Assembly (NCBI GenBank): GCA_964464605.1
Contig: CAYXJN010000002.1
Span: 248,001 to 312,000 of the forward strand
Source: an uncultured Ignavibacteriales bacterium
GTDB taxonomy: Bacteria > Zixibacteria > MSB-5A5 > GN15 > FEB-12
Direction: 5' to 3'
Length of the DNA stretch: 64,000 nt
The translations under genes and the position numbers were made by a program. This document shows, one piece after another, positions 18,514-19,918 of the stretch; position 1 is the first letter of the stretch, and each line of letters opens with the position of its first letter. A model generated the notes under the pieces. That model saw only the letters and a program-made list of their open reading frames with translations. It had not been told where the DNA came from and made no database searches.

Positions 18514-18514
<1 letters not shown>
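17678..18514 (+). CDS. Isocitrate lyase/PEP mutase family protein
   Basis: PNPWDIGSA, ATTSAG, PVNADFQSGY, GLSIED, AGADCLFAPG. Confidence 0.9.
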
Positions 18515-18585
<71 letters not shown>

Positions 18586-18676
18586 ATGAGATTGTTCACT
18601 GAACGTGAAGCTACGCGGGGTATTCCCCATTGTCAATATCGAGGATCCGGTAACAATAACCCGATAACTATAATAT

Positions 18677-19062
18677 AAAACCCCCTCGCAGCGATTTGAT
18701 ACTCACCCGTATGTGCTTCTTTCATACCGGCATCCATATCTTCTCGATGCTCCCTGCGTGGACCTCTTACGGTCTTTACTTTTTTTGAGGGGCAGGGATA
18801 CCCGCCGTATCCCTACCTCCCATTCCCACAAGCTGCGTTATTCCCGCAGTCCTGTGTTATGTATGTAAAAATCAGTGCCGATCTCCACGATCGACAGTGA
18901 TGGTGCACACACAACATCACGTTGTTTGTTTGAATCCGAACTTTCGCGATAACAGCAGAAAATTTCCGCCGGGTAAGCAACTTCTTCGCTCGCGAAGTCC
19001 GACGGTGAGCGATTGGCTCACGTTTATTAAGAACCGTCCTCTTCCCCTATAGAAAAGGCAGC
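18677..19062 (-). ncRNA. Candidate large structured non-coding RNA of about 385 nt, family unknown
   Basis: ORF-free, about 10 helices with G-U pairs favouring the minus strand, TATAAT at 19069-19074, U-rich 3' end. Confidence 0.6.
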
Positions 19063-19147
19063 TACTCTATTATACAAAAAAGTTTTGAGATGGCACGATA
19101 TTTTTTACCCCGTCACGTGTTCGGCCGCACAACTAATCAAGGGTGCA

Positions 19148-19903
19148 TTACGGGTTCTTTTTCTTACCGGTGAAAAAGACAATCAGAATCGAGGCTTCAT
19201 ATAAGAGATACAAAGGGACCGCGAGCATCATTTGCGTGGCAACATCCGGCGTCGGGGTCAGTATTCCGGCAACGATAAGAATAATAACGACTGCATACCG
19301 CCGTCCTTTGCTCAAACTCCGCGCACTGATAAACCCGATCTTCCCCATATAAAAAGCAACAACCGGTAGTTGAAAGCAAAATCCAAAGGCCAATAGCAGC
19401 ATACCGGCAAAGCTGATATAACTTCCGACCGTAATAATCGGGCTGAACAGATCCCCGGAAAACCCGATCATGAATTTTAACGCGAACGGCAGCACAATGT
19501 AAAAGCAAAATGCCGCGCCGGACAGAAACAGAATGGTCGAAACGATGACCATCGGAATCACCGCCCGCTTTTCCTTTGCATATAAACCGGGTGACACGAA
19601 TGACCAAAGCTGATAAAATACGAACGGAATAGCCGCTAACATTCCGGTTATAAGCGCCATCTTAAAATAGGCGTAAAATGAACCCGTTATGTCGGTCACA
19701 TAGAGTTTGATATCCCCAAGCGGTGAGATAAAGAACCGAATTATCGGATCGGCGAAGTAAAAAGCTGCCGCAGTAGTAATCACGACTGCGAGTACGGCTT
19801 TCAGCAGCCGTTTGCGCAGTTCTTCAATATGATCAAGAAAAGGTAAACTGAAAAAACTCGGTTTATTGTTTTCAGATTCTGTTTCGGGTTGGTCAAGCGG
19901 CAT
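19148..19903 (-). CDS. tatC: Twin-arginine translocase subunit TatC
   Basis: FLDHIEELRKRLL, YQLWSFVSPGLY, FQLP, LTPTPD, LYEASI. Confidence 0.95.
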   Translation of the reverse strand: MPLDQPETESENNKPSFFSLPFLDHIEELRKRLLKAVLAVVITTAAAFYFADPIIRFFISPLGDIKLYVTDITGSFYAYFKMALITGMLAAIPFVFYQLWSFVSPGLYAKEKRAVIPMVIVSTILFLSGAAFCFYIVLPFALKFMIGFSGDLFSPIITVGSYISFAGMLLLAFGFCFQLPVVAFYMGKIGFISARSLSKGRRYAVVIILIVAGILTPTPDVATQMMLAVPLYLLYEASILIVFFTGKKKNP

Positions 19904-19918
19904 AGGCAAATCGTGGGC

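Follow-up and report, generated by a model that had tools for sequence, protein, structure and literature searches.

The question raised by this locus is whether the gap between tatC and the gene for tRNA-Gly(CCC) encodes an RNA of its own. The gap (18586-19147, 562 bp) lies in the 64,000-nucleotide (nt) stretch of DNA analyzed here, called the window, which corresponds to contig C2:248001-312000 of a 2.8-Mb, 18-contig, and 100%-complete genome (G000) of an uncultured member of the Zixibacteria. The longest open reading frame (ORF) of the gap comprises 55 amino acids (aa), in agreement with an initial annotation that had noted the lack of any ORF of at least 60 aa and had proposed a large structured noncoding RNA (ncRNA) on the minus strand between 19074 and 18677. 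Our analysis suggests that the stretch is probably a new lineage-restricted ncRNA, and we consider the locus a credible orphan candidate, i.e., a promoter-driven, structured bacterial ncRNA that matches no catalogued family.

The first evidence comes from folding. On the minus strand, 18677-19074 reaches -154 kcal/mol, compared with -113.2 +/- 6.0 kcal/mol for dinucleotide shuffles, and none of 100 shuffles is as good (z -6.78). On the plus strand, z amounts to -3.74, and this asymmetry is due to the 19 G-U pairs among the 119-128 pairs of the minus-strand fold, so that the RNA-level signal which the initial annotation had read from its G-U pairs is borne out. A local fold, in which pairs span at most 70 nt, attains -141.9 kcal/mol vs. 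-113 kcal/mol for unrestricted folds of the shuffles. The 5' half on the minus strand (19062-18866) has a z of -3.6, and the 3' half (18865-18680), with z -6.35, is the most strongly folded part. Around the structure the signal disappears: the 94-nt spacer toward the tRNA (18679-18586) has a z of 0.03, the 73 nt from the tatC stop to the promoter described below have +1.2, and two control segments of 301 nt from the tatC coding region have +1.7 and -0.2. The structured zone is sharply bounded, at about 19067-18680, and the data support a minus-strand, RNA-level feature.

How unusual such a signal is within the genome was estimated by a census of 126 ORF-free gaps of at least 250 nt, which gave 516 window-strands of 300 nt and is noisy, with 15-25 shuffles for each. 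The background has a mean z of -1.39 and a standard deviation of 1.69, and the best 300-nt segment of our locus, with z -6.11, ranks eighth of the 516 window-strands and seventh of the 126 gaps. The folding signal is well beyond chance and among the strongest in the genome, but a high z does not by itself set the locus apart. Among the 15 strongest other gaps, Rfam names four, i.e., the 5' end of 16S rRNA, signal recognition particle (SRP) RNA, a thiamine pyrophosphate riboswitch, and a group II intron fragment. In most of the remaining strong gaps, the score is due to one or two long, perfect hairpins of terminator type (read by eye), whereas the tatC/tRNA-Gly locus consists of a run of about 10 different helices.

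The second piece of evidence is a promoter at the 5' edge of this zone. The hexamers GTGCCA (-35-like, 19091-19096) and TATAAT (-10, 19069-19074), both on the minus strand and separated by a 16-nt spacer, match the consensus at 10 of 12 positions; both hexamers had been pointed out in the initial annotation. This site (19096-19069) is the best promoter-like site of the region, and its score equals that of the promoter of tRNA-Pro in the same genome. A sigma-70-type promoter in this position would start minus-strand transcription near 19062.

All 14 stem pairs named in the initial annotation are present at the positions it gave, and on the minus strand the predicted helices form an ordered series. 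The P1 hairpin (19029-19067) has the core CCUUUUCU/GGAAGAGG (19058-19038), extended by AGCUG/CGGUU and GAG/CUU, with pair probabilities of 0.89-0.99. It is followed by the P2 hairpin GUGAGC-CAAUC-GCUCAC (19005-19021, pair probability 0.95). A GACG/CGUC extension of P2, also proposed earlier, is present in the sequence but competes with an extension of P1 (19063-19059/19036-19032) that the predicted folds prefer. In the local fold, a three-way junction (18936-19002) comes next, with a closing helix formed by 19002-18991 and 18948-18936 and two inner hairpins at 18990-18976 and 18971-18953; the A/C-rich linker CAAACAAACAAC (18921-18932) is unpaired. The H1 hairpin (AUCA-C-UGUCGAUC GUGGA GAUCGGCA-C-UGAU) and a UUUU tract following it (18867-18901, pair probability 0.89-1.00) are terminator-like, and apart from the H1 stem (18901-18871), which sits mid-way through the structured zone, the minus strand of the gap has no such site. 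Beyond H1 lie the H2 hairpin CACAGG-A-CUGCG GGAAUAA CGCAG CUUGUG (18827-18856, pair probability 0.98-1.00), the H3 hairpin (18786-18822) with its 11-bp core GGUAGGGAUAC/GUAUCCCUGCC (18817-18791, pair probability 1.00) plus UGGG/CUCA, and the H4 hairpin GACC-GUAAGA-GGUC (18761-18774, pair probability 0.98). A 3' junction closed by CGCAG/CUGCG (18687-18758) encloses the stems GCAUC/GAUGC (18750-18730) and GUAUG/CAUAC (18727-18709); GCAUC/GAUGC has a probability of 0.99, and the other two stems compete with long-range pairs of the global fold. The tail AGGGGGUUUU (18677-18686) ends the structured zone, where GGGGGUUUU is present at the 3' edge (18677) with no simple hairpin before it. The stretch has two A/C-rich linkers, CAAACAAACAAC and ACAUACAUAACA.

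This anatomy can be read as two modules. Transcription from the putative promoter would produce a 5' module of about 195 nt (about 19062-18867) that comprises P1, P2, the three-way junction, and the CA-rich linker, and that ends at H1, whose U-run would act as intrinsic terminator. Read-through past H1 would add the 3' module (18865-18680), with three hairpins and the second junction, and yield a longer form of about 385 nt. The independent RNA of about 385 nt that the initial annotation had proposed therefore agrees with the data in its fold, strand, bounds, and promoter, but its unity as a single 385-nt molecule is only putative, as the terminator-like H1 suggests a product of about 195 nt and read-through from tatC is possible. 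Since no terminator is found between tatC and the promoter, transcripts of tatC probably end at H1 too, and a tatC mRNA and an RNA that share the H1 end would correspond to the layout of small RNA (sRNA) genes embedded in 3' untranslated regions (UTRs). The downstream tRNA-Gly gene would keep a promoter of its own.

The third piece of evidence is a diverged relative of the stretch. By word matching, the stretch is present in 20 of 24 listed sequencing runs; the nine studies behind them sampled bioreactor, activated sludge, sludge, aquaculture, rhizosphere, wastewater, and soil communities. Eleven of the listed runs that are not on record as RNA contain it in full (share of sampled words 1.00), and three runs (X14, X16, and X19) carry it with no differences. 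X16 and X19 are on record as probable DNA and the kind of X14 is unrecorded. The assembled contigs of X20, a soil metatranscriptome, contain a relative that is roughly 88% identical. An X20 contig of 818 nt (depth 18) aligns to 18912-19081 and differs from it by 15 substitutions and 6 gap letters, and a second one of 243 nt aligns to 18752-18836, where 2 substitutions and a 3-nt gap are seen; 18629-18722, 18864-18910, and the part above 19098 are without cover. In the promoter region of the relative, the -10 hexamer and the T-run are identical, and GTGCAA takes the place of the GTGCCA of the window at the same 16-nt spacing (read by eye, with a loose end at 19081), whereas 8 of the 9 spacer bases next to the -35 hexamer differ. 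Judged from these sequences, the predicted promoter is conserved as a promoter in the relative.

The changes within the transcribed part seem to avoid the stems. None of the nine listed substitutions of the 818-nt contig affects a paired position of the local fold, in which 58% of the positions are paired, and when the substitution pattern is shifted circularly, 5 of 170 shifts avoid stems as well as the real pattern does. P1 has no listed change, the sole change in P2 (19013) sits in its loop, and the six changes in the three-way junction are all at junction positions; overall, the changes fall in the P2 loop, in linkers, and in junction strands. In the 243-nt contig, which covers H3 within its 85-nt stretch, the listed change and the deletion are located in the A-rich linker between H3 and H4, and both hairpins are without listed change; one of its two substitutions is not listed. 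When the listed changes are applied in silico, P1, P2, and the three-way junction are kept (-49.0 vs. -50.7 kcal/mol), whereas random mutants of the same kind reach -42.6 +/- 4.4 kcal/mol and 7.6% of them are as good as the relative. The evidence from this one relative is only suggestive. Together, the strand-specific G-U pairing and the position of all nine listed substitutions outside stems point to selection on the RNA, which would keep the shape of the stems rather than the sequence of loops or linkers.

Two other motifs were considered and rejected. A possible four-bp contact of the P2 loop (AAUC) with GAUU (18935-18932), found by eye, is not supported, since position 19013 is altered in the relative and 18933 has no listed change to match. 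The pentamer AGAAG appears in three loops (3 vs. 0.6 expected, reached in 19 of 1000 shuffles), but it was picked post hoc and one copy is shortened by the 3-nt deletion of the relative.

Several observations weigh against an independent RNA. No transcript of the organism of G000 is found among the listed runs, and the unchanged carriers, like the other listed holders, are not on record as RNA. The X20 sequences are contigs assembled from an RNA library, in which DNA may be present, and neither the strand nor the ends of a transcript can be read from them. Moreover, the 818-nt contig extends 650 nt farther upstream, an extension that read-through from the preceding gene would explain as well as an independent RNA does. 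Six of its 15 substitutions are not listed and their positions are unrecorded, and the comparison is with a single partial relative that leaves the partners of long-range helices uncovered. In addition, the U-run after H1 is short, with four U past the stem, and, in the census, six other ORF-free gaps score better in 300-nt windows, so that the z-score of the locus is high and not unique.

Some of these points would be explained if the structure were a cis-acting transcript end or insulator, namely the 3' UTR of the tatC operon, which stops the mRNA and protects it from 3' exonucleases; in read-through transcripts it would form a long leader, to be removed from the tRNA-Gly precursor by cleavage. 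Between the tatC stop and the structured zone there is no terminator-like site and the first on the minus strand is H1, the 5' module is continuous with 650 nt of upstream sequence in the X20 contig, and the other ORF-free gaps of G000 with comparable z are mainly hairpins of terminator type. However, one terminator would suffice for such a role, whereas the locus has about 10 helices and two junctions over 385 nt. Folding is strongest past H1 (z -6.35), where conservation is also highest (85 nt with 2 substitutions and a 3-nt gap), and the 10/12 promoter, with hexamers and spacing kept in the relative, is situated exactly at the 5' edge of the structure. The tRNA-Gly gene also possesses its own promoter on the minus strand, TTGACA (18636-18631) and TAGCTT (18613-18608) with a 17-nt spacer (18608-18636, 9/12), and sites of the type TTGACA or TTGCCA are found just 5' of tRNA-Gly(CCC) in four related loci (L010, L017, L018, and L019; sequences read by eye), so that the structure is not needed for expression of the tRNA. 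A purely cis-acting role is a possibility to be taken seriously, but we judge it rather doubtful.

The narrow distribution of the stretch counts against the proposed RNA as well. G000 alone represents its genus in the genome set searched, and the nearest relatives of its TatC protein have at most 63% identity and belong to metagenome-assembled genomes labelled Zixibacteria, on which the placement of the organism in this phylum is based. A DNA search of 60 relatives gave no match at E <= 0.001, and among 284 other genomes of the phylum, at E <= 1, only short stretches of at most about 54 nt were found (best E 0.009). Single-sequence covariance models were built for 18758-18901 (R1) and 18930-19068 (R2), and neither had a hit in 107 genomes of the family at E <= 0.05, nor did R2 in 40 relatives at E <= 1. 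With filters off, R1 scored at most 12.8 bits (E 0.12) and R2 at most 9.0 bits (E 1.2) in 13 tatC-syntenic loci (68,811 bases); these two matches fall in a hairpin-repeat stretch of locus L015 and were judged to be chance. These loci come from a synteny hunt via tatC that covered the best 80 of 124 confirmed stretches in genome contigs (best 63% identity) and the best 80 of 453 in metagenome contigs (best 57% identity). In 4 of the 13 loci examined (L010, L017, L018, and L019), tRNA-Gly(CCC) follows tatC, and the interval between both genes contains unrelated protein genes and no similar sequence: an ORF of 491 aa in L010, a membrane-protein-like ORF of 321 aa in L018, and an ORF of about 90 aa in L017 and L019. 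The conservation that the initial annotation had suggested looking for in the tatC/tRNA-Gly gaps of relatives is thus not found in these loci. As the inserts of the relatives are unrelated, the interval is a variable slot and the RNA is specific to its lineage.

Such a slot also invites the explanation that the stretch is left over from DNA once inserted beside the tRNA gene, has no function, and is rich in hairpins only by its history. The differing inserts in L010, L018, and L017/L019 are compatible with it, as are the tandemly duplicated hairpin-rich stretch after tatC in L015 and the lack of a homologue in the 284 other genomes of the phylum. Nevertheless, the stretch is single-copy, with no second copy or paralogue in its own genome, and shows no similarity to phage and plasmid records; in viral contigs, for which one hairpin pattern (18791-18817) was scanned, no match was found. 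Its G+C content of 0.47 is near the 0.488 of the genome, and strand-specific G-U pairing, nine of nine listed substitutions outside stems, and conserved promoter hexamers are not expected of a remnant, which we therefore regard as unlikely.

The variable slot gives rise to some observations of its own. The tatC/tRNA-Gly(CCC) interval behaves as a hot spot of gene gain, with a different insert per lineage in L010, L017, L018, L019, and the window. The ORF of L017:4048-4320 and L019:3988-4272, which encodes only about 90 aa, is conserved, has a start resembling that of a signal peptide or lipoprotein, shares the motif GIVNSAVDFQRYMLDSVMSNN, and is absent from the window. For the gaps after tatC, z lies in the range of -1.3 to +0.1 in L017, L019, and L090. 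The corresponding gap of L015, with z -4.6, was considered and set aside, as its signal stems from a tandem duplication with perfect hairpins whose sequence is unrelated to our stretch. This duplication of about 205 nt (L015:3727-4140) repeats the 3' end of tatC and two perfect hairpins (GGUCAGGAAC...GUUCCUGACC and GUCAGGAGG...CCUCCUGAC), and CCUGAC-type hairpins like those of L015 flank the SRP RNA gene in G000; these hairpins may constitute a family of REP-like (repetitive extragenic palindromic) elements of these bacteria.

We return to the proposed ncRNA and to the question of whether it belongs to a known family. A search with the 4227 models of Rfam 15, which include GOLLD, ROOL, OLE, HEARO, raiA, 6S, CsrB/Rsm, tmRNA, RNase P, SRP, and T-box, detects only three tRNAs in the window at gathering thresholds. 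At E up to 10, a cmscan-type check over 18550-19200 yields only a cut tRNA and a 21-nt viral pseudoknot model (15.1 bits, E 5.7). The view of the initial annotation that the stretch is not tmRNA, RNase P RNA, or SRP RNA is confirmed, since these are encoded elsewhere in G000: RNase P RNA at C4:112607-112964 (273 bits), tmRNA at C1:250042-250394 (178 bits), and SRP RNA on contig C9 (L192, 72 bits). The 6S hallmarks, which it had also found lacking, are indeed missing: a model search with RF00013 gives no match at the locus or anywhere in G000, and we rejected an identity as 6S RNA, as the predicted folds are chains of hairpins and junctions rather than the 6S rod, which is about 185 nt long, paired at its ends, and opened by a large bubble in its center. 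In this lineage, 6S RNA is either too diverged for the RF00013 model or absent.

The locus also recalls CsrB/RsmZ in that its hairpins are strung together by unstructured linkers over a few hundred nt and that the genome encodes CsrA. As a weak option, the initial annotation had considered a CsrB-like sponge, which would titrate CsrA via GGA motifs in loops. Its count of about 13 GGA triplets is correct, and by eye a few of them lie in loops (GUGGA in H1, GGGAAUAA in H2). However, they are not enriched: dinucleotide shuffles contain 10.0 +/- 2.2, 119 of 1000 shuffles reach 13, AGGA occurs twice vs. 2.2 expected, and no Csr/Rsm model of Rfam matches up to E 10. The single CsrA gene of the genome (PF02599, 79.8 bits, C6:254310-254465) is a 110-aa ORF directly after a 465-aa gene for a flagellar hook-associated, FlgK-like protein (L206, G000:C6:252810-255965). 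Such a position suggests a flagellar, FliW-type system, and we know of no sponge RNA for a FliW-controlled CsrA. Sponge activity of this kind is very unlikely here.

The analogy to the large ornate RNAs GOLLD and ROOL, likewise raised in the initial annotation, loses its footing beyond the adjoining tRNA gene. In PMC5737381, both are described as often near tRNAs and in prophages, and our locus resembles them as a large structured RNA of unknown function adjoining a tRNA gene. The lengths considered for GOLLD and ROOL are about 580-800 nt, with many multistem junctions and pseudoknots (for ROOL, figures from PMC5737381). The structure described here is smaller and simpler, with about 385 nt and two three-way junctions in the local fold, and it matches neither Rfam model up to E 10. 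Its neighbors are housekeeping genes and it is not located in a prophage, there is no match in phage or viral collections (one pattern in the case of viral contigs), and it seems to be confined to one genus-level lineage, whereas GOLLD and ROOL are spread over several phyla. That it is a distant member or analogue of these RNAs is extremely improbable.

A coding function was considered as well, for example an mRNA for a small protein such as a type I toxin-like peptide that is silenced by the fold of its mRNA. An ATG ORF of 34 aa (18737-18633, minus strand; translated by eye) has a hydrophobic end, and the global minimum-energy fold pairs both ends of the region over about 300 nt. The ends of hok-type mRNAs are likewise paired over long range. 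On the other side, the hydrophobic run is short (about 11 residues), a ribosome-binding site at suitable spacing is lacking, the ORF overruns the structured zone, none of the five small ORFs of the gap that were scanned has a Pfam match, and the relative has single-base indels in the 55-aa ORF. The changes of the relative also disfavor the long-range fold, whose 33 long-range pairs close 18997-18684 and pair part of the three-way junction with 18708-18684: of the 9 listed substitutions, 5 affect positions that are paired in it, and 81 of 170 shifts are as good. For the 5' module this fold was therefore less preferred than the local one, in a test for which the partner strands lie outside the coverage of the X20 relative. 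We consider an mRNA for a small protein highly unlikely.

Among characterized RNAs, the arrangement is closest to two other types. DapZ and MicL are reportedly encoded by sRNA genes within the 3' UTR of an upstream mRNA, with an internal promoter of their own and a shared terminator. In our locus, too, a promoter just past the stop of the last operon gene, the lack of a terminator between them, and a terminator-like hairpin shared with the upstream mRNA are found. Embedded sRNAs of the 3' UTR measure roughly 80-300 nt, act together with Hfq, and possess a short seed sequence. In contrast, no Hfq gene was found in the search of G000, and the RNA proposed here would be longer and almost fully folded and would have a second, more structured module after the terminator-like hairpin. 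The CrcZ and CrcY RNAs of Pseudomonas titrate Hfq/Crc by means of hairpins with A-rich CA motifs. A size of about 400 nt and hairpins set apart by A/C-rich single strands (CAAACAAACAAC and ACAUACAUAACA) are common to both, but only two linkers exist here, by eye they do not fit the AAnAAnAA motif, and neither an Hfq gene nor an Rfam match was found.

With these comparisons in mind, a lineage-restricted ncRNA with its own promoter seems to account best for the locus. Because of the anatomy of the locus, we infer that the product is a stable RNA acting in trans, most likely a protein-binding scaffold or regulator whose helices are under selection, and we rate the chances of this proposal as evenly balanced. 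Transcription in this organism and the 5' and 3' ends given above would follow from the predicted promoter and the fold. A more far-reaching version, namely that the stretch defines a new family of multi-domain structured RNAs of about 385 nt in one Zixibacteria lineage from sludge, bioreactor, and soil, transcribed from its own promoter and serving as a scaffold with helices under selection, is tentative, and we hold it to be possible rather than probable.

The gene setting is that of a housekeeping region. The gene tatC (19148-19909, minus strand; Pfam TatC, E 7e-68) is the final gene of a minus-strand operon for a class IV aminotransferase, RpiB, serine hydroxymethyltransferase, a thiamine-binding-protein family member, CutA1, NrdR, and TatC. 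The gene for tRNA-Gly(CCC) (18514-18585, minus strand) is identified by a tRNA call and an Rfam tRNA match, and a convergent gene of the PEP-mutase family on the plus strand ends at 18514. Among these neighbors of the structured stretch (NrdR, CutA1, serine hydroxymethyltransferase, RpiB, and the PEP-mutase-family protein), there are no phage genes. On the plus strand at 18760-18790, H4 followed by a T-run (GGACC-TCTTAC-GGTCT TTACTTTTTTT) resembles a weak terminator for the convergent PEP-mutase-family gene; this T-run is shortened in the X20 relative, so that a role as terminator is probably not conserved.

Outside the window, the census revealed other structured regions. L197 (G000:C2:130450-131300) is another unannotated structured region: this ORF-free gap has no Rfam match, folds with z -5.9 on the plus strand, and includes a long G/C-rich imperfect hairpin (CCCCCCUUCCCUCCGCCGGAAGC...) among other helices. 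Ten more ORF-free gaps (L191, L195, L196, L198-L203, and L205) have best z of about -8.3 to -4.6 and no Rfam or tRNA match, and by eye they contain mostly one or two long perfect hairpins of terminator type; L196 and L200 are each situated on a contig of roughly 3.3 kb. L193 (G000:C12:14850-15600), located on a contig of 20 kb, has a match to a group II intron domain (RF00029, 51.6 bits).

As to the biological meaning, the narrow distribution limits the general importance of the finding, and with one partial relative it is a candidate and not a demonstrated class of RNA. A full-text literature search on Zixibacteria and noncoding RNA found no description of regulatory RNAs in Zixibacteria. The locus offers a concrete target, with coordinates, a promoter, and predicted helices. 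The Zixibacteria are uncultured, and such an RNA would add to the few large bacterial RNAs whose function is unknown. If the proposal is true, this lineage would possess a specific "ornate" RNA with a partner and a role that lack a counterpart among catalogued bacterial RNAs.

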